Positions 15,171-62,377 of a stretch of 64,000 bases of DNA are shown here, piece by piece (position 1 is the stretch's first letter; each line of letters begins with the position of its first letter). The position numbers and the translations under genes are program-made. The notes below the pieces were generated by a model. That model made no database searches. It saw nothing but the letters and a program-made list of their open reading frames with translations, and was not told where the DNA came from. Source of the DNA: an uncultured virus (IMG/VR IMGVR_UViG_3300046665_000306) (taxonomy: Duplodnaviria > Heunggongvirae > Uroviricota > Caudoviricetes); IMG/VR virus record IMGVR_UViG_3300046665_000306, positions 1 through 64,000 of that record, one strand, 5' to 3'.

Positions 15171-15392
15171 TTAAGCCTTTTGGAACAATTTAATTTCCGC
15201 TGCATAGTAGAAAATGTCGTCGTTTTCGTAGTTCTCAGAAACGACTGCATATTGAGTGATTCCATCCTTAACGAATTCGTTGTCAAGAATGCCCACAAAA
15301 CCTTCATTCATAGGCCAACCGTTTTCAACGCCTTTTACGATCATGACGAAATCGCCAATTTCGATTTTGTCGTTTTTAATCTTGCGGGCCAT
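15171..15392 (-). CDS. hypothetical protein, SH3/KOW-like
   Basis: IEIGDFVMIVKG; shared leader. Confidence 0.7.
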   Translation of the reverse strand: MARKIKNDKIEIGDFVMIVKGVENGWPMNEGFVGILDNEFVKDGITQYAVVSENYENDDIFYYAAEIKLFQKA

Positions 15393-15407: not shown

Positions 15408-15450
15408 TTGACTATGTAAGGATATTAAAATCATTTCCTTACATAGTCAA
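15408..15450 (-). promoter_or_regulatory. 43-bp palindromic sigma70 promoter (compensated variant)
   Basis: TTGACTATGTAAGGA...TCCTTACATAGTCAA; TTGACT-17-TAATAT. Confidence 0.85.
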
Positions 15451-15454
15451 TAGC

Positions 15455-15688
15455 TTATTTCCAATTTTTTGCAGTTTCGCCATATGCCTTTTCGCCATAG
15501 GCAACGGCTTCATAACGACGCTTGAAAAGCTTTGCGCTGCATTCACCTTCTGCATAGCAGTAGGAATCAGAGTTTGGAGTCATCCAAGCCAAACGCCAAA
15601 GGTCTGTCATAGTGTCGCGCTTTACGTAAAGCTCCGCCGACATATCAGGCTGCAAACCGCGATTCTCAGTCATTTTGTAAGGACGCAT
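15455..15688 (-). CDS. hypothetical early protein
   Basis: shared leader GGGAATACGGAAATG. Confidence 0.75.
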   Translation of the reverse strand: MRPYKMTENRGLQPDMSAELYVKRDTMTDLWRLAWMTPNSDSYCYAEGECSAKLFKRRYEAVAYGEKAYGETAKNWK

Positions 15689-16001: not shown

Positions 16002-16391
16002 CTAACCAATGAAATAAGGCTTAGGTTCTTTTGTCGTTAGCCAATAATGGCCACGATTTGAGACCTTACCATTGTCTGCATATTCTGACGGTTCAATCCC
16101 GTTGTTACCATAATAATCAGCGCGATTACTATGAGTCGAGTAGAATTTGCCTTCATAGAAACCGCCAAACATGAGCGAGTCGCGATAAAGAGCGTCAATC
16201 AACGCCTTTTCGTAACCATCAAAATAAGCAATAACCCAATGCGGGCATTTCGCCAATGTTGACCGGCGAATCTTCGCCTTGTCTTCATTCATCTGAGATG
16301 AAAGAGGGCCATAAAACTTTGCGGTTTCATACAATGAACGCAAGGATTGAATAGCAGTATTGCGACGATTCAACGCGGTTTCGATTCTCAT
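16002..16391 (-). CDS. hypothetical early protein
   Basis: leader AGGAGCTAAGGCAATG. Confidence 0.75.
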   Translation of the reverse strand: MRIETALNRRNTAIQSLRSLYETAKFYGPLSSQMNEDKAKIRRSTLAKCPHWVIAYFDGYEKALIDALYRDSLMFGGFYEGKFYSTHSNRADYYGNNGIEPSEYADNGKVSNRGHYWLTTKEPKPYFIG

Positions 16392-17429: not shown

Positions 17430-17671
17430 TAGCTCAAATCCTCTTTTGCGTAACGGACTCTGCCATCATAATCGACAAATAAGCCGGTTTCATGCTGATA
17501 ACCGTCTCTAACCCATTTGTGCGCCGTGGTACGATGAATGGCCTTGTAGAGCCAATAACCGTTACCATATTCATCCTCGCTAGCGGGAATTTCCCTGTTA
17601 GCCGCGTTGAAAGCCTTTTCAGACTTGAATTCAACTAGCATTTCGCGACGGCGATCAAAGGCGTAAATCAT
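17429..17671 (-). CDS. hypothetical early protein
   Basis: leader AGGAGCTAAGCCAATG. Confidence 0.75.
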   Translation of the reverse strand: MIYAFDRRREMLVEFKSEKAFNAANREIPASEDEYGNGYWLYKAIHRTTAHKWVRDGYQHETGLFVDYDGRVRYAKEDLS

Positions 17672-17685
17672 TGGCTTAGCTCCTA

Positions 17686-17733
17686 AAGCGTTAAAGAATC
17701 CTGCCCTTGATCGGGCAGGAAATTTTAAGGCTT
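17686..17733 (-). other. intergenic RNA hairpin, RNase III-like site
   Basis: AAGCCTTAAA..TTTAACGCTT with TCCTGCCC/GGGCAGGA upper stem. Confidence 0.55.
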
Positions 17734-26653: not shown

Positions 26654-26836
26654 ATGTCTTTCAAAATCGTTGCAGGTGCCCATCAAACAGTCATGGAATT
26701 TGGTGGTGATAATTCAACACTGGAAGAAATGATCGAAAAGGCGAAGAGTATCGCGAAGAAATACGAAATCGATGAAGTGCTTGTTCTGGAAACGAAAGAG
26801 GTTTTTTCTACAAAAAGAAATAAAAAATCTTCTTGA
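26654..26836 (+). CDS. hypothetical protein
   Basis: SD AGGAGG. Confidence 0.7.
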   Translation: MSFKIVAGAHQTVMEFGGDNSTLEEMIEKAKSIAKKYEIDEVLVLETKEVFSTKRNKKSS

Positions 26837-26861
26837 CATTTCAGATAGTTGGTGTTAAGTT
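26833..26861 (+). promoter_or_regulatory. promoter of tRNA/ncRNA operon
   Basis: TTGACA-17-TAAGTT with TG extension. Confidence 0.75.
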
Positions 26862-26893
26862 AGAATCATCAAAGAGTTGTTAAGGAGAATTAA

Positions 26894-26976
26894 GCGCCCT
26901 TGGTGGAACTGGTAGACACAAGGGACTTAAAATCCCTCGCGAAAGCATACCGGTTCGAGTCCGGTAGGGCGTACCA
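26894..26976 (+). tRNA. tRNA-Leu(TAA)
   Basis: cloverleaf, loop CTTAAAA, long variable arm, encoded CCA. Confidence 0.95.
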
Positions 26977-26986
26977 CTTTATTATG

Positions 26987-27138
26987 AAACTGTTTAGGTG
27001 GGGAATGCTGGTTATGCTGATGACCTTGTTCCTTCAAGGTCTAATGAGGAAAGAAGTAGTTTCGAAGGCGGTTGCGACTGGCAGAGAAACATAAGGATAC
27101 TTGGTTCGATTCCCCTCAGTTCCCTTCCTAAACAGTTT
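26987..27138 (+). ncRNA. unknown structured RNA with pseudoknot and T-loop-like motif
   Basis: 12-bp closing stem AAACTGTTTAGG/CCTAAACAGTTT; GACCTTG/CAAGGTC; GGTTCGATTCC. Confidence 0.65.
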
Positions 27139-27251
27139 GCAGGGACCGGTTTATGGAGAATGGCGTATCCAGCCTTATGATAAAGGTTCCGGCTTCTTTG
27201 AGGTTGTTATCTCAGGGAACGAAGATGGTTTGATTCCATCCTGCAAGTCCA
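27136..27251 (+). ncRNA. tRNA-like RNA with expanded D-domain and long anticodon-position arm
   Basis: TTTGCAG/CTGCAAG-T-CCA; T arm GATGG-TTTGATT-CCATC. Confidence 0.7.
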
Positions 27252-27270
27252 GTTTTGAATGTTAAAGTTT

Positions 27271-27419
27271 GGCTCAACCTGAATTAACAGGTACTGAACC
27301 GCTGGAACAGAGGCACGAAGCCTTGATCGAGCGGAATGGATAAAGTAAATGAAACTCACGTAGAACGCCTATATGGCAAAGTGACGCAGAGATAACATTG
27401 CTTCGGTCCAGCCTTTTTT
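27271..27419 (+). ncRNA. candidate structured RNA
   Basis: several hairpins, GGCT/AGCC closing, ends in T6; non-coding gap between RNA genes. Confidence 0.45.
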
Positions 27420-27422
27420 CTT

Positions 27423-27496
27423 GGGCCTATAGCTTAATGGTAAAGCAATCGGCTTTTAACCGATTGACCTGAGTTCAATTCTCAGTGGGCCTACCA
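27423..27496 (+). tRNA. tRNA-Lys(TTT)
   Basis: cloverleaf, loop CTTTTAA, encoded CCA. Confidence 0.95.
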
Positions 27497-27524
27497 CATT
27501 TAATTTAGAAACTTTGATTATATA

Positions 27525-28082
27525 ATGACTAAAGAAAAATTAAGAAAATTAAATGGTTATGTTCTGAGATACGAACCAGATTATCCTAAATCTTTTACTA
27601 GTGGAGAAGCCGGTAGAAACGGGCATGAAGGATATGTTTATGAACATATTTATGTTATGGAAAAAGAGTTGGGGCGCGTTTTAGTAAGTGATGAAGAGGT
27701 ACATCATCTCGATTTTAACAGGTCCAATAACACTCCTTCAAATTTAATTGTATTAAGTTCTTCACATCATAGTAGATTACATAGATATTTAGAATCTATT
27801 GGTTTACAGGAAGAAAGTGCAGAACATAAGGATAGAATTTATACTTATATACCACGATGTGTTGTTTGTCTATACCCATTGCAAGATAAACAAAAACAAA
27901 CGTGCAGTTTGATTTGCCGGTCAGAAAGCTCCAACTTAAACAAGCCAGATAAGATAACTTTGGAAGAGGAATTAAAATACAATTCCATGGTTGCTTTATC
28001 CAAGAAATATGGTATGAGTGATAATGGGTTGAAGAAATACGCGAAGAGGATGGGCATTCAATTTCCTCTCAAGCGGAACTAA
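27525..28082 (+). CDS. HNH homing-type endonuclease with Zn-finger and C-terminal HTH
   Basis: YVYEH...EEVHHLDFNRSNNTPSNL; CxxC..CSxxC; AT-rich. Confidence 0.85.
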   Translation: MTKEKLRKLNGYVLRYEPDYPKSFTSGEAGRNGHEGYVYEHIYVMEKELGRVLVSDEEVHHLDFNRSNNTPSNLIVLSSSHHSRLHRYLESIGLQEESAEHKDRIYTYIPRCVVCLYPLQDKQKQTCSLICRSESSNLNKPDKITLEEELKYNSMVALSKKYGMSDNGLKKYAKRMGIQFPLKRN

Positions 28083-28090
28083 TTAAAAGT

Positions 28091-28210
28091 TTGCGTAGAT
28101 CGAAAGCGTTACCGATTCTTGGTTGTTGTTTTATAGAACCGGTAATTAATTCAGGAAGACTGCCTTAGCGGGTAGGAGGACTCAAGAGTAACAACCTGAG
28201 AGTCGCGCAA
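28091..28210 (+). ncRNA. unknown multibranched RNA with loop-loop pseudoknot
   Basis: TTGCGT/GCGCAA closing; GGTTGTTGTT complementary to AGTAACAACC. Confidence 0.6.
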
Positions 28211-28217
28211 TTCATAC

Positions 28218-28387
28218 GTGCTGTCTAATCAACAGCTAGTCGGAGGGTGGCACTTCGATGAATAGAAGTCGCTGTGATGGTGACAACCAAATCGCTCCTG
28301 TATCCGGGTAGGATCGTGGTGTGCCCGCGTAGGCTAAACATCGTGGAGGAGCTTGTAAAGTTCTGTTGAAGCGGGATTAGCCAGCAC
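28218..28387 (+). ncRNA. unknown multibranched RNA
   Basis: GTGCTG.CTAATC/GATTAG.CAGCAC closing stem; several internal hairpins. Confidence 0.6.
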
Positions 28388-28409
28388 TTAAATTTAAGAG
28401 GGTCTTGGT

Positions 28410-28670
28410 ATGATTATTAAACTGCTTGAAGAAAATTGGGATAAAATACTGCAAATCGGTGTAGAAGCAGAGCAGAGGATGAAGGCTTATATGGCTGGTA
28501 ATGTCATCTTTGAAGGGGTAACTCTTAAAGGCAAGAACCGAATCAACGAACACGGCGCGTGCTGGAAAGTTGTTGACACGCGAGACGGAAAAGTGCTATT
28601 CGAGGCTCTTAATACTGGATACCTGAAGTGGGGTCCAGAGCCAGATTTTAGGATCGTAGAGAGGGATTAG
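28410..28670 (+). CDS. hypothetical protein
   Basis: 86-aa ORF; LKGKNRINEHG. Confidence 0.7.
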   Translation: MIIKLLEENWDKILQIGVEAEQRMKAYMAGNVIFEGVTLKGKNRINEHGACWKVVDTRDGKVLFEALNTGYLKWGPEPDFRIVERD

Positions 28671-28674
28671 CATC

Positions 28675-28875
28675 ATGGGTGAGACCATTCTTATATATGA
28701 TGAGCGTTACGAAAGCGGGCCAAGATTTATTGGTTCGTTCAGGAACGTGCCAGAGGATTGGACCGCGAAAGAAACGCTGGTCCGTTACGGGATAGGTGAG
28801 CATCTGTGCGTGTATCGCGACAACTTCGTACCTAAGAATTGTATTCATCACGGAAAAAGATTTAGATCGGATTAA
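28675..28875 (+). CDS. hypothetical protein
   Basis: 66-aa ORF in operon. Confidence 0.6.
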   Translation: MGETILIYDERYESGPRFIGSFRNVPEDWTAKETLVRYGIGEHLCVYRDNFVPKNCIHHGKRFRSD

Positions 28876-28876
28876 T

Positions 28877-29086
28877 ATGAAAGATCAGTTTGGTTATACT
28901 CCCAATACGGGAGAAAGTTATCCACCATATTTTAATATTACTAAAGTTGATGGTGGGTATCGTGTGATAGTCAGGCGTAAAGCCGTTTGGGATGGTGATC
29001 TTTGTCTTCCCATGGGTGGTAATATTGTGGAAGAAACCTTCCCTGAAGATTTCATTGAGAAACTGAAAGAGTTTGTCAATGGCTAA
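28877..29086 (+). CDS. hypothetical protein
   Basis: ATG right after upstream stop. Confidence 0.65.
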   Translation: MKDQFGYTPNTGESYPPYFNITKVDGGYRVIVRRKAVWDGDLCLPMGGNIVEETFPEDFIEKLKEFVNG

Positions 29087-29405
29087 AAAGGTTGGAAATT
29101 ATAAAATTCCGTTTGATGAAATTGGGAATCAGTTACACTATCCCGGTTGGCATTGGTTTGACGGCAAGCGTTTCGAATGTGAGATGCGTGATAATCACGC
29201 CTTTGAAGATACAATAATCTTTGATTCTATGGAGCGTGGTCGGAGCGCTGCATATTTCTATTTTAAGCGATCCACAGGTGAAAGACTTGTTGTCTTCATG
29301 AAAGATTTATGCGATATGATGCCTCACGTTGTCAATGGCACAGTGACTGGCACGTTCACTTTCGTTAAGCGTGGTGCTAATTTTGGCACGGCATTAATCA
29401 GTTAA
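29079..29405 (+). CDS. hypothetical phage protein
   Basis: RGRSAAYFYF..FTFVKRGANFG motif. Confidence 0.75.
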   Translation: MAKKVGNYKIPFDEIGNQLHYPGWHWFDGKRFECEMRDNHAFEDTIIFDSMERGRSAAYFYFKRSTGERLVVFMKDLCDMMPHVVNGTVTGTFTFVKRGANFGTALIS

Positions 29406-29412
29406 AAGTTAA

Positions 29413-29487
29413 GGCTCCTTAGCTCAGTGGAAGAGCAGCGGTCTTCTAAACCGCAGGTCGCTGGTTTGAATCCAGCAGGAGTCGCCA
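29413..29487 (+). tRNA. tRNA-Arg(TCT)
   Basis: cloverleaf, loop CTTCTAA, T-loop variant TTTGAAT, CCA. Confidence 0.9.
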
Positions 29488-29492
29488 AATTC

Positions 29493-29569
29493 AGCCGTGT
29501 AGCTTAGCGGTCCAAAGCCGTCGGCTCATAACCGATTGATCCTGTGTTCGAATCACAGCATGGCTACCA
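29493..29569 (+). tRNA. tRNA with CAT anticodon (Met or Ile2)
   Basis: cloverleaf, loop CTCATAA, CCA; paired 1:72 argues against initiator. Confidence 0.9.
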
Positions 29570-29586
29570 AATTCAAAGGAGATGTA

Positions 29587-29787
29587 ATGATTAAGATGTT
29601 GAAAGATATTTACCATTGCGCTATCATTGGTAAGTGGAATGGAAATCTTATTGATTGTGAGAGTGGGAAAATCCATGAAACGGTTAGGAATTCCATTAGC
29701 ACTCTAGCAACTATTGTCTGTGCTCCTAACGCTTCTAAAGAACATAAGCAGTGGGCCAAAGATAAGATCGAGGAGCTTCTGTCATGA
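29587..29787 (+). CDS. hypothetical protein
   Basis: SD AAAGGAG. Confidence 0.65.
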   Translation: MIKMLKDIYHCAIIGKWNGNLIDCESGKIHETVRNSISTLATIVCAPNASKEHKQWAKDKIEELLS

Positions 29788-30237: not shown

Positions 30238-32238
30238 ATGACAACAGATTTCAGACCATTCGCAAAGGCTATTCGTGCCAATTTCGATGAGCTTTCGAAG
30301 CGTGAGCTTTACACCGTCAATATTTCAGGTGACGAACTGTGGGATTTTTATCTCGATTCATTTCCGGCTGGTACGAACGAAATGTTTCGCCAGCGCCGCG
30401 AGTATGACTGCTCGTGCTGCAAAAATTTCATGCGCAACGTGGCTAACGTTGTTGCTATCGTTGACAATCAGCTTGTCTCGGTTTGGGACATTGCTGATGC
30501 GGGTCATCCGTTCAACGTGGTATGCGAAGCTCTTTCTGAGAAGGTTAAGAGCCTCGGTGTTTCTAACGTTTTCCGCACCAAGGAGAATTCTTTTGGTGCC
30601 GAAATGACGCGGGAATTTGGTGACGGAACAAACATCAACTGGAACCATTTCAACACTAAGATTGCTTCCAAGCATATCTGCGCCGAAGTGGCAACGATCA
30701 AGGGCAAGAAGGCTACGGCGGCTCAGGTCTTCCGTCGCGCTCTGGAAGAGCTTGATAATCGTGCCGTGACAACGGTGCAGGAATTGATCAAGGATGATCT
30801 GCTGTATCGAGGAATGGAGCACAAGGCGGCTGTGGATGCATTCGCTAAGGTTCAGCGTGAGTACAACAAGCTCAATTCTGATGAGGCGCGCAGCATCTTC
30901 ATTTGGGCTAATATCGATAGCTTTGTTGCTGGTTTCCGCAACACGGTAATCGGAACATTGGTGCAGGACTTGACCGAAGGCAAGGATTTGGAAAAGGCTG
31001 TTAGCTCTTTCGAGACAAAGATGGCGGGTGACAATTACAAGCGATCCAAGACTCTCATCACGCCAAGCATGATTAAGGACGCGATGAAGACAATCGAGGC
31101 TCTTAACCTTGAAACGGCCTTGGAACGTCGATTTGCTCGAATTGGTGACGTTACTGTAAATAATGTTCTTTGGGTCGATAACTCTGTCAAGGGAAAGATG
31201 AAGGGTGGTATCGAATCGCTTCTCATGGAAGCTGCTGTGACAAAGGCTCCGAACGTTGATAGGGCTGAGAACATCGGTATCGAAGCATTTATGGCTGACG
31301 TGGTGCCGAAGGCAAAGTCGATTGAAGCTCTGGTCAAGAATGCTTTTGCCGGTAATTTCATGAGCCTTACCGCTCCGGTTCACGATGATGTGGAGCAGCT
31401 TTTCAAGTGGAATAACAACTTCGGTTGGAGCTATGACGGCGATATTGCTGACTCTGATATCAAGATGCGGGTATCTAAGGCTGGTGGTAACGTCACTAAC
31501 GCTGTGCTTCGTATCAGCTTGGCTTGGTTCAACTTTGACGATCTGGATATCCATGTCTTTGAGCCTAGTGGAAGACAGATTTCTTTCCGTAACAAGGATG
31601 GAAAACTTGACGTTGATATGAATGCTGGAGGCTCTAATACGCGCCAGCCGGTTGAGAACGTTAGCTACACAAAAGCTAATATTCAAAATGGTGTTTACAC
31701 TGTCAAGATCAATCAGTTTCGTGTTCGCGAAGACAAAGATTTTGGTTTTGATCTTGAAGTTGAAAACAATGGTTCGATCCATAATTTCAACTATACCAAG
31801 CGTGTCACTGGTACGGTTAATGCGTTGAGGATCACGGTCAAGGATGGCGTTGTCGTAAATATTGAGGCTGGTGCTGGTATTACTGGTGGTATGACGCCGC
31901 AGGAAAAGTGGGGTGTTAAGACTGAAACTTTGGTGCCTGTCGATACTATCATTCTCAGCCCTAACTATTGGGATGATAATGCAACAGGTAACAAGCATTG
32001 GTTCTTTATTCTGAAGAACTGCTTGAATCCTGAACCGACTCGTGGTATTTATAATGAATTCCTACGGTCAGGTCTGGAACAACATCGGAAGGTGTTCGAA
32101 GTGCTCGGATCAAAGACCAAGTGCGAATCATCTGATGATCAGCTGAGTGGTATTGGTTTCAGTTCCACGAAGCGCGCCGAACTGCCTGTACTGGTCAAGG
32201 CTTCTACGGGTCAGAAACTTTACAACATTAACTTTTAA
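30238..32238 (+). CDS. large phage protein with CSCC motif and YfaP/DUF2135-like domain
   Basis: YDCSCCKNF; LRISLAW..DDLDIHV.EP..LDVDMNAGG..PVENV. Confidence 0.75.
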   Translation: MTTDFRPFAKAIRANFDELSKRELYTVNISGDELWDFYLDSFPAGTNEMFRQRREYDCSCCKNFMRNVANVVAIVDNQLVSVWDIADAGHPFNVVCEALSEKVKSLGVSNVFRTKENSFGAEMTREFGDGTNINWNHFNTKIASKHICAEVATIKGKKATAAQVFRRALEELDNRAVTTVQELIKDDLLYRGMEHKAAVDAFAKVQREYNKLNSDEARSIFIWANIDSFVAGFRNTVIGTLVQDLTEGKDLEKAVSSFETKMAGDNYKRSKTLITPSMIKDAMKTIEALNLETALERRFARIGDVTVNNVLWVDNSVKGKMKGGIESLLMEAAVTKAPNVDRAENIGIEAFMADVVPKAKSIEALVKNAFAGNFMSLTAPVHDDVEQLFKWNNNFGWSYDGDIADSDIKMRVSKAGGNVTNAVLRISLAWFNFDDLDIHVFEPSGRQISFRNKDGKLDVDMNAGGSNTRQPVENVSYTKANIQNGVYTVKINQFRVREDKDFGFDLEVENNGSIHNFNYTKRVTGTVNALRITVKDGVVVNIEAGAGITGGMTPQEKWGVKTETLVPVDTIILSPNYWDDNATGNKHWFFILKNCLNPEPTRGIYNEFLRSGLEQHRKVFEVLGSKTKCESSDDQLSGIGFSSTKRAELPVLVKASTGQKLYNINF

Positions 32239-32689: not shown

Positions 32690-33021
32690 TTACCAGTTCA
32701 GAGATAGCGGTTTACATGGTTTCCGGGGGCGCTGTAGCCCTCGGATTTCTTGCATGTGTGTGGCAAAGGTTTTGGCCAGAAAGGATTAACATGGCAGAAG
32801 AAAGTCGATACTACTGCTACGAAGTTCGGATAAGCGTGCAGTCACCGGATGATAAATTAGAACGCTTAATTCTGACGTTCTTGGTAGACGATTTCCAAGA
32901 GATTGAGGCTTTGGAAGAGCAGTCACAGAAATCCCAAGCGAAATTCTTAGTGGAGGGATATACGCTGAAGGCTATTCGCACCTCAGATGATATTCTTGCT
33001 TTGGTAGGCGAACTACATTGA
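32686..33021 (+). CDS. hypothetical protein with N-terminal TM (start uncertain)
   Basis: TTGA coupling. Confidence 0.55.
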   Translation: MITSSEIAVYMVSGGAVALGFLACVWQRFWPERINMAEESRYYCYEVRISVQSPDDKLERLILTFLVDDFQEIEALEEQSQKSQAKFLVEGYTLKAIRTSDDILALVGELH

Positions 33022-33176
33022 ATAACAAAAAGGCCTTCAGGATTTGGTTTCTGAAGGCCTTTTCTATTATAGTTCTTTTTAGATTTTAGGATTTTAATCC
33101 TAAATTGTGGTTGCTCTAACTCGCGCGCCATAGGGCTTCGCTTAGCTGGTAGCTCTTTCTGCTTGGGCTTGCTCAT
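32817..33176 (-). CDS. ArfA-like small basic protein, ORF cut by internal terminator
   Basis: SPMARELEQPQFRIKILKSKKNYNRKG resembles ArfA P.FR....K.KK..Y.RKG; SD AGAGG. Confidence 0.55.
   Translation of the reverse strand: MSKPKQKELPAKRSPMARELEQPQFRIKILKSKKNYNRKGLQKPNPEGLFVIQCSSPTKARISSEVRIAFSVYPSTKNFAWDFCDCSSKASISWKSSTKNVRIKRSNLSSGDCTLIRTS
33027..33063. terminator. bidirectional intrinsic terminator
   Basis: AAAAAGGCCTTCAG...CTGAAGGCCTTTT between convergent blocks. Confidence 0.85.
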
Positions 33177-34884
33177 CTTTCATCCTCTTCTCTCTTATCT
33201 TTCTCTTCTCTTCCATTTCCTTTTCGATGGCACGTTCTACCATACCTTGTTTGACTTCGCTAGAGGGTGAAGAGCCAGAACCATGAAGTTTTTTAGTTCC
33301 AACTTTTCTGGTTCGGCCTCTGGCCCACTCTAAATATTGACTGGTACTATCGACCATGTCGTCATTCTTGCCATATGGAAACGCCATTAGTTCGCGTTCA
33401 TACTCGGCCAGCCACGTAGCTGATTCGGGGAGATAAACCAAGCCAGCTTCGAAGGATGGAGCGACGGCATCGAACCTGAATTCTTTAGAGTTATTGTTTG
33501 TGCTAATTGGGATGATCGGGATGTTAGTTTTACCGGCTCTGGTTTGCACGTACTGAGTGCCCGAACCTTTATCTTCGATCAGAATGCACGAAACGTTCCA
33601 ACGTTCCGCAGTCTCATCAATGAGTTTGCACATCTCGGGGAATTCAACTTTTGCTCTAACACAATCTAAGAGATAATGCAAGCCAAATTCTGTTTCCATC
33701 CAAACAGTGAGTGCGGTAAAGTCGTGACGTTCTTGAGCCTTCTGCGCCGTATCGACTGAGAGAGTGATGCGTCGAATTTTGATTTCAGGGTTTTTCCTTA
33801 CATCGCCTTTATAACGTTGGAACCAATCTGATTTAAGTAGAACGCCTTCAGCGTCAACCGGGACGCCTTGCATCATAGAGCCCCACATTGCTCCTGTGAG
33901 TGTGGCGCGCTTATTTAGGTAATCCTGATGGTAAAAGTCCCACAACGGCATGTCAGGCTCTGTGCGGCCCATAGGATCGTCTTCATCACCAAGCTCGGAT
34001 AAAGCTTTTAGATTGATAATCTCGTAAGGGATAATGCTTCCCTTTTTACCTTCAACTTCTAGCCTGCCAATCATGTCGTCAGAGTTATAACGAGTGTTGA
34101 CGAGAACAATAGGAGCGCGGGGCAAGAGTCGGGTCTGGAAGTCAGATAGGAACCACGAATAAGCGTCGTCTCTGACTTTAGGATTTTGAGCTTCTAAGTA
34201 ACTTGCATAAAGGTCATCGATGCAACCCATGTTGGCGCGGATACCCATGATACCAGCGCCGACGCCTTTAGCGACATATTCGGATTTATTGGTCAGAGCC
34301 CAACGATCACCGGCTCTCATGTCGGCTTGGAGCGCTACGTCGCCAAACACGTCTTTGAAAGCATCACTGTTGACATAGGCTTTAGTTTTCTTGCCTAGTT
34401 CATTCGTGGCGAACGCAGCGGCATAGCTAGCCTGAAGCCATTTAGTCTTTCTACGACCCATGCACCAAACGGCAAAGCGGCGGGAAGAGTATTCACTCTT
34501 TCCACCACCGGCAGGAACGCTAAGTGCTAATCGAGGGATGTTCCCGTTCTCAACATTTTCCAGCTTTTCGCAGATGAAATGATGGTGAGGAGCGGGTGGC
34601 TCATCCATGTTCAAGTATTCAGCAAAACATGAATAACTACTAAACGCTGCGCCGCGAAGCTTTTCTTTGTATTCGTCTTCGTAATGCTCAAGAACTTGTT
34701 GTACACCTTGAAGCTGATTTTCAGGAACTGCTGTCTTCGTCAGGTTCACTATTGCTGATGACAAGTGTGTCGGAATCGGGGATTTCAATCGCAAATGGTC
34801 TTGGAGAGCTTCTTCCATCGTGCGAAGATTCTTTATTGATGACCTGTATATTAATCTGTCGTTCCAACTGAGGTAGTTTGTCAT
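33142..34884 (-). CDS. terL: terminase large subunit (start uncertain)
   Basis: Walker A PAGGGKSE, Walker B GCIDD, nuclease LSVDTA..DFTA..NDDMVD. Confidence 0.92.
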   Translation of the reverse strand: MTNYLSWNDRLIYRSSIKNLRTMEEALQDHLRLKSPIPTHLSSAIVNLTKTAVPENQLQGVQQVLEHYEDEYKEKLRGAAFSSYSCFAEYLNMDEPPAPHHHFICEKLENVENGNIPRLALSVPAGGGKSEYSSRRFAVWCMGRRKTKWLQASYAAAFATNELGKKTKAYVNSDAFKDVFGDVALQADMRAGDRWALTNKSEYVAKGVGAGIMGIRANMGCIDDLYASYLEAQNPKVRDDAYSWFLSDFQTRLLPRAPIVLVNTRYNSDDMIGRLEVEGKKGSIIPYEIINLKALSELGDEDDPMGRTEPDMPLWDFYHQDYLNKRATLTGAMWGSMMQGVPVDAEGVLLKSDWFQRYKGDVRKNPEIKIRRITLSVDTAQKAQERHDFTALTVWMETEFGLHYLLDCVRAKVEFPEMCKLIDETAERWNVSCILIEDKGSGTQYVQTRAGKTNIPIIPISTNNNSKEFRFDAVAPSFEAGLVYLPESATWLAEYERELMAFPYGKNDDMVDSTSQYLEWARGRTRKVGTKKLHGSGSSPSSEVKQGMVERAIEKEMEEKRKIREKRMKDEQAQAERATS

Positions 34885-35299
34885 TTGATGGTAGCATCTT
34901 ATTGTTGTTATTATTATGTGCTGGTTCACGACCTACGCGGTTAAGCTCTGCCATGTCTCTGAGAATGATTGCTCCATTCTTCAGATCGTCAATCTCGATA
35001 GCCTTGTTCAAAAGTCTGACGTATTCTTTATTGATCCAGTCCAGATCAATTTCTTCGTGGTCTGTTTTACGCAGCGGGAGAGGAGGTGCGACGGATAGCA
35101 TTTCTTTTTCCGCAGTTTTCATTTTTAATTCTTGAATTCTTGCCGCGACTTCGGGAGTGCTGGCAAGCTTCGAAGCATTAGCAGCAGCTGTGGTGTTCTT
35201 GCAAGTAAAACCTGCTTCTTTGTAAGCCGCGATTTGAGTATAACCATTCACCAAGTAGTTAGCGAACTTTTCTCTTTTGTCGGATGAAAGTCTAGCCAT
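34721..35299 (-). CDS. terS: terminase small subunit
   Basis: KREKFA....G.TQIAAYKEAGF...ANASKL...V.ARIQEL HTH pattern; upstream of terL. Confidence 0.8.
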   Translation of the reverse strand: MARLSSDKREKFANYLVNGYTQIAAYKEAGFTCKNTTAAANASKLASTPEVAARIQELKMKTAEKEMLSVAPPLPLRKTDHEEIDLDWINKEYVRLLNKAIEIDDLKNGAIILRDMAELNRVGREPAHNNNNNKMLPSNDKLPQLERQINIQVINKESSHDGRSSPRPFAIEIPDSDTLVISNSEPDEDSSS

Positions 35300-35561: not shown

Positions 35562-36085
35562 TATTCAGATAGCTCGCCAATCAGAGTAAAGGGCTTTTCG
35601 ATCTTGTATCCCATGGCGCACATGCCGTAAAATGCGATGAGCGCAGATTCGGCTCTGCCATCGTCCATTTTCCTTTTCCAAGCCGTCGAGCATTTAGGAA
35701 AATACTGATTAGCTCGATAGCGAGCAGCATCTTTTTCAGCAGGTACTTTGAGTTGTGCTTTCCAGACCGCAGGCCTTACCTGAGAAACAGGAACCTTAAG
35801 TCCGCCGCAGACACCTAGGATCGTGCCAAAGTTTCTACCAAAGGTGAAGCTACTTACGACGCCTTCACCGGGGCGAGCATTTACTTCCTCAATATAAAGA
35901 TGAATGATTCTATCATCATCTAGGATATCACCAATACCGACATGGTCGATAACGGTTTTGGCCTTAGCTCCCGGCTTGATCGTGAACGTAGGCATATCAA
36001 ATAGCTCGATAGTGTGTGCCACTGGATCAAGCTTGGTGAATGCGCCTTTGCTACCGGGGTCAGCGCCAATGATTATTCCTGCCAT
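35561..36085 (-). CDS. RuvC-like Holliday junction resolvase
   Basis: IGADPG, YIEEV, FTFGRNFG, DGRAESALIA. Confidence 0.88.
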   Translation of the reverse strand: MAGIIIGADPGSKGAFTKLDPVAHTIELFDMPTFTIKPGAKAKTVIDHVGIGDILDDDRIIHLYIEEVNARPGEGVVSSFTFGRNFGTILGVCGGLKVPVSQVRPAVWKAQLKVPAEKDAARYRANQYFPKCSTAWKRKMDDGRAESALIAFYGMCAMGYKIEKPFTLIGELSE

Positions 36086-36774
36086 ATTTCATCTACTTCT
36101 TTTTGGCCTCTGAGTTGAGCCTCAATGGCGTCTTCAATATTTTTTTCATATGAATAATGGTTGAAAGTACCATTTAGTCTAACTTTGACCATGTACAGAT
36201 TACGTGGCTTGTGATAATATACGCCAAGTACAGGTGTCTCTTTAATTTCATCCAAACCTGTGTCGGCAGAAGCTTCTGTCACGTTGGCATATAGATTATA
36301 AAGCCTTAACTGTTCCTTGGCCCACTTCTCAGCCGTGAGATGATGCTTGAACGTAGAGCCGCGATAGAAATATGGGTGATGCCAAACCTTGACTTGGAAC
36401 GTGCCAGCGGTATAAGGCTTGATCAGGTAGTTACCCAATTCCTTTTTGACAGAGGAAAGTAGGACTAGGTTGTCGCGATGCGTGTTGTACAAATCGCCGT
36501 CTACCGCAACAATAGGTTCCTTGGGCCAATCTCCGTGGAGCAAGAGCCAAGCAATGTGAGGTATCTCTACCAGAACTTTCTTGACGTGACAGACATATCG
36601 CCCTGCATAATGCATGTTGACACGTTTCGTTACTTTCCACGTGTCTCGGTAGAGGCGATAAATTCTGCCAGTATCTTCATCGTACTTGAATATTTGCTTC
36701 ACGTACTTTTTGTCTAATCCGGGATACAGATCGAAATACTTATCCATGTCTCGGATGATTTTCTTAGCCGCCAT
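36073..36774 (-). CDS. HNH/AP2-type protein with degenerate HNH site
   Basis: FKYDEDTG, HIAWLL.HGDWP, DGD..N...NL, GVYYHK AP2-like end. Confidence 0.7.
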   Translation of the reverse strand: MAAKKIIRDMDKYFDLYPGLDKKYVKQIFKYDEDTGRIYRLYRDTWKVTKRVNMHYAGRYVCHVKKVLVEIPHIAWLLLHGDWPKEPIVAVDGDLYNTHRDNLVLLSSVKKELGNYLIKPYTAGTFQVKVWHHPYFYRGSTFKHHLTAEKWAKEQLRLYNLYANVTEASADTGLDEIKETPVLGVYYHKPRNLYMVKVRLNGTFNHYSYEKNIEDAIEAQLRGQKEVDEIWQE

Positions 36775-44662: not shown

Positions 44663-44869
44663 TTAACAGAGCGCGTCATGAATTTCTTTGTGACCCGCCA
44701 GATAACCACCAATGTAACACGCCCTGTATTTATTAAAAATAACTTTAGCGTCTTCCGGCCCGCAACTCATGACAAGCTGTGAAAACAAATCTCCCCTGCT
44801 TAGCAGAGCGTTCATCTTTGGAACAAACACTTCGTCAAATTCTTTACCGATCTCGTCAACTGTTTTCAT
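44663..44869 (-). CDS. hypothetical protein
   Basis: 68-aa ORF in operon. Confidence 0.6.
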   Translation of the reverse strand: MKTVDEIGKEFDEVFVPKMNALLSRGDLFSQLVMSCGPEDAKVIFNKYRACYIGGYLAGHKEIHDALC

Positions 44870-45251
44870 GACGGTTCCCCTTCTCCACGTTACAGATGAA
44901 GCACATGGTTTGATAATTGTCGAGCCGGTTCGGCCCTCCCTTTGATTTCGGAACGATATGATCCTTGGTGATCATAACTTCTTCACCATCAGCGTTTTTG
45001 CCGTAAAGATTAAAGTGAAACCCTTGCGACATGGGCGTGACAGTGCCATCGGGACGGCGCTTAACGGTGCGCTCCATGGCGTAATACAAACCCTCTGTCC
45101 CACATGTGACGCAATACCGATTCTTGGCAAAGAGCTTGTACCGATCACTTCCGGTCTTAACCATCTCTCCGTCGAGCAGAACCTTTTCGTCATCACTTCT
45201 GATTAACGAAGTGATATGCTCGACGCTATACGTCCCGCGCCGTTCATACAT
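44856..45251 (-). CDS. HNH endonuclease
   Basis: CVTC..TKDHIVPKSKGG..NYQTMCFICNVEKG. Confidence 0.88.
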   Translation of the reverse strand: MYERRGTYSVEHITSLIRSDDEKVLLDGEMVKTGSDRYKLFAKNRYCVTCGTEGLYYAMERTVKRRPDGTVTPMSQGFHFNLYGKNADGEEVMITKDHIVPKSKGGPNRLDNYQTMCFICNVEKGNRHENS

Positions 45252-56357: not shown

Positions 56358-56744
56358 TTATTTCCTAACCCTACCTAACATTCTCAACCCACGCTCACCA
56401 AAATTTTGCCTCACGATTTTTTTCACCAACTTCTTGTCGCCCTTAACATTCTTGACGATCTTCGCTATGGCATGAACCACGTATCTATTGGTTGTCTTCA
56501 ACCAAGCCGTCTCTACCGGACCGAATCGTCTGCTATATCTTTTAAAAGTTTCAGCTTCGATAATGCTACCTTTTTCTTGGTTACATGTGACACAACATGG
56601 GACAAGGTTGGCTATACCATCCCCTCCACCTTGCCTCCTAGGCTTCTTGTGATCCGAAGATTCATTAGGACGTGTGTCACAGTAAAAGCAAAGCTTATAC
56701 CGTTTCCTTATAAGGCTTTTATTCCTATCAAATTGTCCGCTCAA
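56358..56744 (-). CDS. HNH endonuclease
   Basis: CFYC..SDHKKPRRQGG..NLVPCCVTCNQEKG. Confidence 0.85.
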   Translation of the reverse strand: MSGQFDRNKSLIRKRYKLCFYCDTRPNESSDHKKPRRQGGGDGIANLVPCCVTCNQEKGSIIEAETFKRYSRRFGPVETAWLKTTNRYVVHAIAKIVKNVKGDKKLVKKIVRQNFGERGLRMLGRVRK

Positions 56745-61386: not shown

Positions 61387-61974
61387 TTAAATTTTGTCCC
61401 AAACAGCGATAACCGCTTCGATGTAGCTATTATCTATCACAAACGTTTCACGAGGTAAATGATAAAACCTTACATCATGGAGAATCTTACAAATTTCGTC
61501 ACGGTATGCGGCATGGAGCAGAGCGACAAGTCTTCCACCCTCTGCAAGCTGAGACGCGGCATGACTGACATGCGTGACGCAATTACGATGGGGTGGATTC
61601 ATAACGACTCGGTCGAACAGATTGTCAAACTTTTGACATAGGAAATTGGTGTTCAAACATTCCACCGATGGATGTGAATCTATCAAATCAGCAAACATCT
61701 TCTTATTAAGTTCTATCGCCGTGATGTAGCGAGCGTGAACCTCAAGAGCTTCCACGATAGCACCAATTCCGGCACTAGGTTCAAGCACTCTGTCATGAAT
61801 TGTGATATCCGCAAGCGCGGCCATATCGGCGGCGAGCCACGACGGCGTCATGGTCGCAAGCAATTTGGTCCGGGGTGATGGGCTCGAACCACCGACACCT
61901 GTAGTTTCGTCCCTTATCCCCTTCAAATCATCTCCAACACTACTAGGGCCGGTTCTTGAGTTAATTACGCTCAT
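61387..61974 (-). CDS. class I SAM-dependent (amino-type) methyltransferase; ORF begins inside tRNA-like RNA
   Basis: VLEPSAGIGAI, AIELN, FDRVVMNPPH; alternative start ATG 61851 has no SD. Confidence 0.8.
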   Translation of the reverse strand: MSVINSRTGPSSVGDDLKGIRDETTGVGGSSPSPRTKLLATMTPSWLAADMAALADITIHDRVLEPSAGIGAIVEALEVHARYITAIELNKKMFADLIDSHPSVECLNTNFLCQKFDNLFDRVVMNPPHRNCVTHVSHAASQLAEGGRLVALLHAAYRDEICKILHDVRFYHLPRETFVIDNSYIEAVIAVWDKI

Positions 61975-62089
61975 TACTACATTCCTTTCATATCATTGAT
62001 TCATTTAAGGTTCAATTCATTCCTGTCGGTGATCAAGCCGGTCGAAATGAATCAGGCTAACAGTGCTCTACCAACTGAGCTAACCCCAG
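61866..62089 (-). ncRNA. tRNA-scaffolded RNA 1 with 152-nt insert replacing anticodon loop
   Basis: CTGGGGT/ACCCCGG-A-CCA; D arm GCTC-AGTTGGTA-GAGC; T arm GGTGG-TTCGAGC-CCATC. Confidence 0.85.
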
Positions 62090-62129
62090 AAATCTTCTTC
62101 AACCGTGGTTGAGGAAGCTTTATGTAATT

Positions 62130-62377
62130 TGGTCCAAGAGAATGGATTCGAACCACCAACCCCACGTTTTCTACCAATCCTTTTCAATTCCATTGTCGCG
62201 GTACTAAGTCTCTTTCATGAGTTGATCTGACTCACTACTTAATCCTTTTCAACGGCAATGTCCTATCCAATTCCATCTAATGCTGTAACACGATTTGTCA
62301 CATCGTTGCACTAAATAAGGCCGTGGTGCTCTACCTGCTACCTTTTGACACAAGGCATACTTTGGAGCTACCCTTGG
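62130..62377 (-). ncRNA. tRNA-scaffolded RNA 2 with D-loop hairpin and 155-nt insert replacing anticodon loop
   Basis: CCAAGGG/CTCTTGG-A-CCA; GCTC/GAGC; CCACG/CGTGG; T arm GGTGG-TTCGAAT-CCATT. Confidence 0.85.

Follow-up and report, generated by a model that had tools for sequence, protein, structure and literature searches.

A candidate non-decoding tRNA-like RNA gene in a lineage-specific cassette of the tRNA array of an uncultured tailed phage

The tRNA array of an uncultured tailed phage contains a 116-nt element that we interpret, at a probability of roughly 55%, as a genuine gene of tRNA origin, encoding a processed tRNA-like RNA that does not decode. The element (27136-27251, + strand) is located in the first 64 kb of the 120,498-bp virus record IMGVR_UViG_3300046665_000306 of IMG/VR, the completeness of which is rated 66%; these 64 kb are hereafter referred to as the window. 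It maps within a phage tRNA cluster, on the same strand as the tRNA-Leu and tRNA-Lys genes and inside the 446-nt gap that separates them. A regular tRNA frame, unlikely to have formed by chance, encloses a body which is not that of a canonical tRNA, and the whole element is a cassette that is missing or replaced in related phages. The coordinates of all features are reported in Table 1.

A tRNA frame around a non-canonical body

The frame consists of a 7-bp acceptor stem (TTTGCAG/CTGCAAG), in which the first pair is U1.G72, a 5-bp T arm carrying the T-loop motif, a discriminator base and an encoded CCA. The T arm keeps G53-C61, T54, T55 and A58, and has a U at position 56, as does the phage's own tRNA-Arg. 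The junctions between arms measure 3/1/4/0 nt, compared with 2/1/4-5/0 nt in tRNAs, and the 25 to 27 stem pairs are all intact, with zero mismatches. A preliminary description of the locus had listed the acceptor, the discriminator T, the CCA and the T arm, together with the CCGG/CCGG, TGGA/TCCA and GCCTT-ATGATA-AAGGT segments discussed below, and all of them are present in the sequence. In the predicted ensemble, acceptor pairs have probabilities of 0.88-0.98, except for two end pairs (0.51 and 0.64); T arm pairs have probabilities of 0.95-0.98 (first pair, 0.85).

Both strands of the whole genome were scanned for the combination of a 7-bp acceptor, a 5-bp T arm whose loop reads TTxxA, and a terminal NCCA within a span of 73-168 nt. 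Five matches were found in the 120,498 bp, namely, the four tRNAs called by ARAGORN and the studied element. In 40 dinucleotide-shuffled genomes, the frame occurs on average 0.075 times per genome, with a maximum of 1. The interior was assessed by keeping the acceptor and the T arm fixed and shuffling the 81 interior bases. In 20000 trials, the observed layout (a 4-bp stem, 1 nt, an arm of at least 9 bp, and 4-5 nt before the T arm) recurred 46 times, and 1270 times when the arm was relaxed to at least 5 bp. On account of the genome scan and the interior shuffles, the tRNA frame of the element is not attributed to chance. In addition, R1, a covariance model derived from the element, could be aligned from end to end with ordinary tRNAs (14-29 bits), the alignments skipping the insert and some of the long arm described below.

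The interior is remodelled in two places, the D domain and the arm in the anticodon position. The latter is formed by strands TTCTTTGAG and CTCAGGGAA, which make 9 bp, or 11 bp if a G.U and a U-A pair are added. It is therefore longer than a normal stem by 4-6 bp, and its loop is either the 8-nt GTTGTTAT or a tetraloop. Ten of its pairs have ensemble probabilities of 0.94-1.0, and the first pair has 0.75. The long arm of 9-10 bp previously described is thus confirmed, and is here counted as either 9 or 11 bp. The loop GTTGTTAT corresponds to G plus UUGUUAU, the form of the GUU loop of tRNA-Asn (Y32, U33, GUU, A37), and is hence an Asn-type loop with one extra base. Conversely, the AUGAUA loop of an inner hairpin of the D domain is an Ile-type loop minus one base.

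Comparison with canonical tRNAs (RF00005) highlights what is kept and what is changed. The 7-bp acceptor, the T arm with its conserved residues, the encoded CCA, a 4-nt variable region, the single nucleotide between the "D" and "anticodon" stems and a U33-NNN-A37-like motif are shared. In contrast, the D loop measures 39 nt rather than 7-11, the arm 9-11 bp rather than 5, and the loop 8 nt rather than 7, and a G replaces U8. A 5-bp anticodon stem closing a 7-nt loop is not found, the stem measuring 9-11 bp and the loop 8 or 4 nt. An arm of 9-11 bp with an 8-nt loop does not suit the geometry of decoding. The element features a partial tRNA architecture that is almost certainly devoid of decoding capacity.

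ARAGORN made no call at 27136-27251, either by default, with introns allowed or with the threshold lowered; under very lax settings, its output on the element was limited to partial calls, with "anticodons" of 2 or 4 bases. No Rfam family matched the element at the gathering score, and nothing was found at E<=10 over 26700-29700 or with the element alone. The match to a known family that would have contradicted the preliminary description is thus missing from Rfam. A PhotoRC-I match on the opposite strand (12.1 bits, E 0.49) was dismissed as chance. A tmRNA was rejected, as both ARAGORN and Rfam were negative and lax ARAGORN runs gave implausible permuted calls spanning 409-460 nt, and YrlA/Y RNA-like RNAs (RF02553) do not match the element. 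The three overlapping open reading frames (50-60 aa) have no match in Pfam and a sole match in PHROG (9.8 bits, E 0.38), and hence carry no protein-family signal. The significance of the frame, the alignment of R1 to tRNAs and the silence of ARAGORN and Rfam fit the earlier view of the element as a remodelled, non-decoding tRNA mimic.

An alternative labelling of the arms was considered. The segment TA-TGGA-GAATGGCGTA-TCCA resembles U8-A9 followed by a D arm, and may be compared with TA-GCTT-AATGGTA-AAGC in the tRNA-Lys of the same phage. Under this labelling, the next hairpin, which has a 5-bp stem, would serve as the anticodon arm, and the long arm would become a giant variable arm. Genome-wide, a loose descriptor combining a D arm and an anticodon arm found 16 matches compared with 11.5 in shuffled sequences. 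Because the descriptor is not enriched over shuffles, this labelling serves only as a post-hoc suggestion about the origin of the element. Normal decoding is very unlikely under either labelling, as neither provides a 7-nt loop.

The register of the D domain is uncertain in the models. The two CCGG copies pair with an ensemble probability of 0.24, while the rival pairing GGGACC/GGUUCC reaches 0.36-0.74; since CCGG is palindromic, the two copies also constitute a direct repeat. Within the 39-nt insert, TGGA may pair with TCCA (loop GAATGGCGTA, preceded by TA, as in a D arm) and GCCTT with AAGGT (loop ATGATA), the ensemble probability of both hairpins being 0.07-0.16. The branched D domain proposed earlier can accordingly be drawn from segments that are truly complementary, but with pairing probabilities of 0.07-0.24 it is not confirmed beyond chance and is retained as a plausible model. 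The proposed fold has an energy of -33.0 kcal/mol, or -35.2 with the two extra arm pairs, compared with -35.8 for the minimum free energy structure.

Kissing between the D insert and the anticodon arm had also been put forward. The TTGTTAT of the arm loop is indeed complementary to ATGATAA in the insert (7 bp, 2 of which are G.U), but a complement of at least 7 nt to the arm loop, G.U allowed, recurs somewhere in the insert in 5409 of 20000 insert shuffles (27%). When loop is set against loop, a complement of at least 7 nt is found in 730 of 20000 shuffles (3.7%). The arm loop and the inner loop both have the U-NNN-A form of anticodon loops, and complementarity therefore easily arises. Moreover, in an L-shaped fold, the insert, which follows the D-loop GG, would be placed at the elbow, distant from the tip of the long arm, a poor fit with such a contact. 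We regard kissing in the element as unsupported.

A cassette in a modular array

A search with the large terminase identified seven IMG/VR loci. Terminases are 100% identical to the query in L003 and L004, 88-89% identical in L005, L006 and L007, and 79% identical in L008 and L009. The element is present in identical form on the L004 contig; the L003 contig stops before the tRNA region. Alignment of the Leu-Lys interval between sister phages revealed a modular array, in which the element is located exactly between two modules, A and C, neither of which matches Rfam. Module A, a structured RNA closed by a 12-bp stem (GAAACTGTTTAGG/CCTAAACAGTTT), shows 99.4% identity with its L007 counterpart, while flanking sequences show 70-76%, suggesting recent recombination; identity with L006 is about 70%. 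Changes on both sides maintain 11 of the 49 predicted pairs of module A. The first three T residues of the element (27136-27138) are common to the 3' strand of the stem that closes this module. Module C is conserved in all three phages, has a 28-nt invariant core (ACAGGTACTGAACCGCTGGAACAGAGGC) and ends with a T run just before tRNA-Lys; 1 of its 36 predicted pairs is compensatory.

In L007, module A abuts module C and the element is absent. In L006, the same site holds a different, unrelated element, which is closed by a hairpin of 16 bp and has a relative elsewhere in L007. Module D, which is closed by a hairpin (TTTATAAAAGCACGGC...GCCGTGCTTTTATAAA in L006), is found in L006 where the studied element would be, but in L007 it is placed between module A and tRNA-Leu, denoting that modules change places. 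The direct repeat AGTTTG marks the limits of the cassette, and L007 lacks all the sequence between the two repeats. The repeat bounds, the absence in L007 and the replacement in L006 indicate that the element is a lineage-specific cassette inserted at a swap site.

Relatives of the element were searched for in several ways. An exact 24-mer covering the T arm and the acceptor retrieved a single IMG/VR contig, which carries an identical copy. The 17-mer of the T arm retrieved 31 IMG/VR loci, comprising the identical copy and 30 loci that are ordinary tRNAs or chance matches as judged by R1 score; among the candidates, a 120-nt match in L037 was rejected, as it overlaps the 3' end of a tRNA-Ala. 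A loop-anchored pattern gave 44 IMG/VR loci, that is, the identical copy and 43 loci without an R1 match; one locus scoring 14.1 bits is merely a 26-nt hairpin. R1 found no match over the whole records of four sister phages. With filters off, it detected in L006, L007, L009 and the window only tRNAs and tRNA-shaped RNAs, at no more than 16 bits. Metagenome scans with a 20-mer of module C and a 21-mer of the element returned nothing, and a scan of genome contigs with a 19-mer of the long arm returned 2 chance matches. The best blastn match of the element to 50,697 GenBank phage records has an E value of 1, and a 671-nt region was matched only via tRNA-Leu. Anchors in modules A and C recovered from IMG/VR only contigs that were already known.

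The DNA runs containing the stretch are labelled as rhizosphere or soil metagenomes. None of the 11 runs is on record as RNA, which carries no weight either way. The element is covered wholly or largely, without a single difference and hence without natural variants, by contigs from runs X3, X4 and X5 (the listed pieces of X5 lack 27214-27237); the contigs of run X6 do not cover it. One X3 contig follows the 3' end of the element as far as 27255, beyond which its sequence is unrelated, and the depth over 27232-27258 is doubled. In the X3 sample, the 3' part of the element is probably also present in another, more abundant genome context.

Table 1. Features of the tRNA array and of the 116-nt element. 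Positions refer to the window, except for module D.
Feature	Position	Strand	Remarks
Possible array promoter	26835-26869	+	TTGACA-17 nt-TAAGTT, TG before TAAGTT; read by eye
tRNA-Leu(UAA)	26894-26976	+	ARAGORN, Rfam
Module A	26986-27138	+	Structured RNA of about 150 nt
Cassette limits	27134-27270	+	Direct repeat AGTTTG at 27134-27139 and 27265-27270
Acceptor, 5' strand	27136-27142	+	TTTGCAG; pair probabilities 0.51-0.98
Enlarged "D domain"	27146-27192	+	CCGG at 27146-27149 and 27189-27192, 39-nt insert between
Elongated "anticodon" arm	27194-27219	+	9 bp with 8-nt loop, or 11 bp with UGUU tetraloop
T arm	27224-27240	+	GATGG-TTTGATT-CCATC
Acceptor, 3' strand, and 3' end	27241-27251	+	CTGCAAG, discriminator T, encoded CCA
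Module C	27265-27422	+	Non-coding element of about 155 nt
tRNA-Lys(UUU)	27423-27496	+	ARAGORN, Rfam
HNH endonuclease gene	27525-28082	+	Directly after tRNA-Lys; missing at that place in L007
tRNA-Arg(UCU)	29413-29487	+	ARAGORN, Rfam
tRNA-Met(CAU)	29493-29569	+	ARAGORN, Rfam
Module D in L006	~16219-16340	-	Hairpin-closed
Module D in L007	~17575-17700	-	Hairpin-closed

Processing, relatives in kind and competing explanations

The seven tRNA and tRNA-shaped genes of the window all encode CCA and continue into an A/U-rich trailer (for instance, CCA-GTTTTGA in the element, CCA-CTTTATT in tRNA-Leu and CCA-CATTTAA in tRNA-Lys). A candidate promoter is located about 25 nt upstream of tRNA-Leu, and is under the threshold of the promoter scan; promoter and terminator scans of the region revealed nothing decisive. 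According to the available portion of a review of RNase P, the substrates of this enzyme include tmRNA, the tRNA-like structures of plant viruses and phage RNAs (PMC11143913). From the trailers, the encoded CCA, the promoter-like site and these known tRNA-like substrates, we infer co-transcription, excision by RNase P and 3' trimming. The element would be transcribed along with tRNA-Leu, module A, module C and tRNA-Lys, and the minihelix formed by the acceptor and the T arm, with the encoded CCA, would make it a substrate of the tRNA-maturation enzymes of the host. RNase P would generate the 5' end; at the 3' end, an endonuclease would cut within the U-rich trailer and exonucleases would then trim the remainder, and the product would be a stable, CCA-ended RNA of 116 nt. 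The rebuilt body, with its 39-nt D-loop insert, an arm 4-6 bp too long and an 8-nt loop, would prevent a normal adaptor role on the ribosome. Our best guess for its use is a tRNA-shaped ligand that may occupy a tRNA-binding factor of the host.

Stable tRNA-like RNAs of phages T4 and T5 were first described in the 1970s. In T5 (NC_005859), RNA1 (30501-30644, 144 nt) and RNA2 (32959-33083, 125 nt) are annotated as "tRNA-like stable RNA with unknown functions", and RNA3 (33877-33949) as "putative tRNA-like RNA". Interspersed with the three are tRNAs, four further stable RNAs and two HNH endonucleases, hegC and hegD. Similarly to the element, these RNAs (73-144 nt) are found in a phage tRNA region and combine an acceptor-like stem and a T arm with a non-canonical body. 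Unlike the element, RNA1 and RNA2 accommodate their extra sequence mostly, as judged by reading, in the anticodon region rather than in the D loop, and RNA2 does not encode the terminal CCA. RNA2 scores 10.8 bits with R1, no better than ordinary tRNAs, and has no sequence relationship to the element. The T4 small stable RNAs rnaC (species 1, 139 nt) and rnaD (species 2, 119 nt) map at the end of the tRNA cluster (NC_000866, 70908-71171), beside a tRNA-Arg and the homing endonuclease gene segB. T4 rnaC carries a canonical T arm (CCGGG-TTCGAAT-CCCGG); its 3' part scores 12.2 bits with R1 and is not homologous. In contrast to the element, neither T4 RNA displays the full four-arm frame with tRNA junction spacings. 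Because the setting is the same (a tRNA cluster, a homing endonuclease and candidate stable RNAs other than tRNAs) but homology is missing (the R1 scores of 10.8-12.2 bits are in the range of unrelated tRNAs), the element is assigned, by analogy, to the loose kind represented by T5 RNA1/2/3 and T4 rnaC/rnaD, and to no sequence family.

Several observations weigh against a gene for a processed RNA. Core contacts of canonical tRNAs are not retained in the outer frame (G for U8, a linker of 3 nt vs 2), and the whole element folds with a z-score of only -1.60, 10 of 200 shuffles folding as well. The two anticodon-like loops (6 and 8 nt) are each 1 nt off, as may happen in a recent pseudogene. Three sister phages do not carry the element. 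All the copies found, in one IMG/VR contig and in the contigs of three runs, are identical, which implies no more than a young element or the sampling of a single strain. No diverged homologue, and hence no covariation or sign of purifying selection, was found in the searched data.

A recent chimeric tRNA pseudogene, that is, a recombination scar without a function of its own in a tRNA region rich in homing endonucleases, is a possible explanation of these data, to which we assign a lower probability than to a gene for a processed RNA. A fragment resembling U8-A9, a D arm and an anticodon arm would be nested in the D loop of another tRNA-like frame, and the chimera would perhaps be transcribed and even processed. 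In agreement with this origin, the element is a lineage-specific orphan, the AGTTTG repeat flanks the cassette, a different element is found at the site in L006, HNH endonucleases are nearby, and module A, so much closer to L007 than its flanks are, testifies to recent recombination. The two CCGG copies repeat a palindrome in direct orientation and so pair automatically; TA-TGGA-GAATGGCGTA-TCCA, the inner hairpin, is D-arm-like, the stem of the next hairpin is 5 bp, and the anticodon-like loops each miss the canonical 7 nt by one. Yet stems contain no mismatch, and perfect pairing throughout the 4-6 bp added to the long arm is not an outcome of random decay. Moreover, a tRNA that could have donated the inner fragment was not found, and matches to the descriptor joining a D arm and an anticodon arm do not exceed chance genome-wide.

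We consider it unlikely that the element is a selected decoy, in which the two anticodon-arm look-alikes (Asn-type and Ile-type) would titrate or jam an anticodon-loop nuclease or a tRNA-binding defence factor of the host. The preliminary description had named anticodon nucleases, synthetases and RelA/SpoT as possible targets of such a decoy. The stable, CCA-ended body would stay out of translation, and the cassette site would be a locus of RNA-level counter-defence, the contents of which are the studied element here, a different element in L006 and none in L007. This role is conceivable in the light of reports which, in the portions available, describe phage tRNAs that evade tRNA-targeting defences, such as PARIS/AriB, the retron Eco7 PtuAB and VapC-type systems (PMC10264068, PMC11464382, PMC11555353). 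As far as those portions go, such tRNAs are, like the element, phage-encoded and tRNA-shaped, and owe their value to how host nucleases treat the anticodon loop. However, they do decode, and their anticodon loops carry point changes, whereas the element is non-decoding. Should the element act on a tRNA-targeting defence, counter-defence by phage tRNAs would extend to non-decoding RNAs.

It is improbable that the tRNA shape merely provides processing punctuation, recruiting RNase P and 3' processing enzymes to free modules A and C with defined ends. Precedents for such signals are the tRNA punctuation of mitochondrial transcripts and the t-elements of plants. The element lies exactly between two conserved structured modules, and its 5' end coincides with the end of the stem closing module A. 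Nevertheless, A abuts C in L007, and a hairpin element that is not tRNA-like occupies the site in L006; a tRNA shape is therefore not required there. In addition, the 39-nt insert and the lengthened arm are superfluous in a cutting signal.

An odd decoder is very improbable. The element might be an Asn-type (GUU) reader of four bases or a class-II-like tRNA, with AUGAUA as the anticodon loop and the long arm as the variable arm. UUGUUAU has the textbook form of an anticodon loop (Y32-U33-GUU-A37-N38), the four tRNAs of the phage read A/U-rich codons, a set that an Asn or Ile tRNA would suit, and 9 bp would equal the stack of a normal D stem and anticodon stem. Neither loop measures 7 nt, though, ARAGORN made no call by default or with introns, and the Rfam tRNA family gave no match at E<=10. 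A U discriminator combined with U1.G72 fits no Asn or Ile identity set known to us. Least probable of all is a chance resemblance without any RNA product, which is consistent with the weak folding z-score and the missing conservation but hardly with a frame that is expected 0.075 times per genome and that occurs here on the correct strand, in a 446-nt gap between two tRNAs.

Under the preferred interpretation as a non-decoding tRNA-like RNA, rebuilt examples of this sort reveal which parts of a tRNA are kept (the minihelix of acceptor and T arm, the CCA and the junction spacing) and which are free to vary (the D loop and the anticodon arm). This partition suggests that the selected property concerns processing, stability or recognition by tRNA-binding proteins, not decoding. 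By itself, the element adds little; the better lead is the array of swappable, structure-conserved RNA modules in this clade.

Other tRNA-shaped RNAs and genome context

Two CCA-ended, tRNA-shaped RNAs are encoded elsewhere in the window, at 61866-62089 (224 nt) and 62130-62377 (248 nt), both on the - strand. In each, the anticodon region is expanded by an insert of about 150 nt; the former has a canonical D arm, the latter an enlarged D loop with a hairpin. In the sister phage G002 the two RNAs are 89-90% identical, with changes in the acceptor and T stems that preserve pairing. Since the clade makes other such RNAs, this conservation supports the interpretation of the studied element as a tRNA-like RNA gene. 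The parallel drawn in the preliminary description with the RNA at 62130 holds for the hairpin inside an enlarged D loop, but the main change in that RNA is the insert in the anticodon region. A weak YrlA match (18.8 bits, E 1.6) at 62038-62188 (- strand) spans both RNAs, and an open reading frame (61387-61974) overlaps the 3' part of the first.

A tRNA-shaped gene of 90-92 nt, not called by ARAGORN, is found beside tRNA-Met in L006 (15418-15507, - strand) and L007 (15874-15965, - strand), where it occupies the place of the tRNA-Arg of the window. It features an acceptor (CTACACG/CGTGTAG), a T arm (GGGGG-TTCGAGT-CCCTC) and a GCCA end; the D stem is of the CCGG type with a GGG/CCC hairpin, and the anticodon region is short and irregular. 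In L009, a tRNA-Lys-like gene (15445-15568, - strand) has an insert of about 46 nt in the anticodon loop (CTTT...TAA), and is partly called by ARAGORN as a 96-nt tRNA-Thr(ggt).

The genome is that of a tailed phage, and the window encodes a large terminase (33142-34929, - strand), several HNH endonucleases, and proteins of the tail and baseplate. ARAGORN and Rfam agree on four tRNAs in the window, all on the + strand and all with an encoded CCA. In addition to the HNH gene that follows tRNA-Lys, the window contains at least four others (including 36073-36774, 44856-45251 and 56358-56744), a feature comparable to the tRNA region of T5. Downstream of the HNH gene of the array, a non-coding stretch (28216-28348, + strand) is 81% identical to an intergenic sequence (15216-15349) of the more distant phage L009, and may be another conserved RNA.

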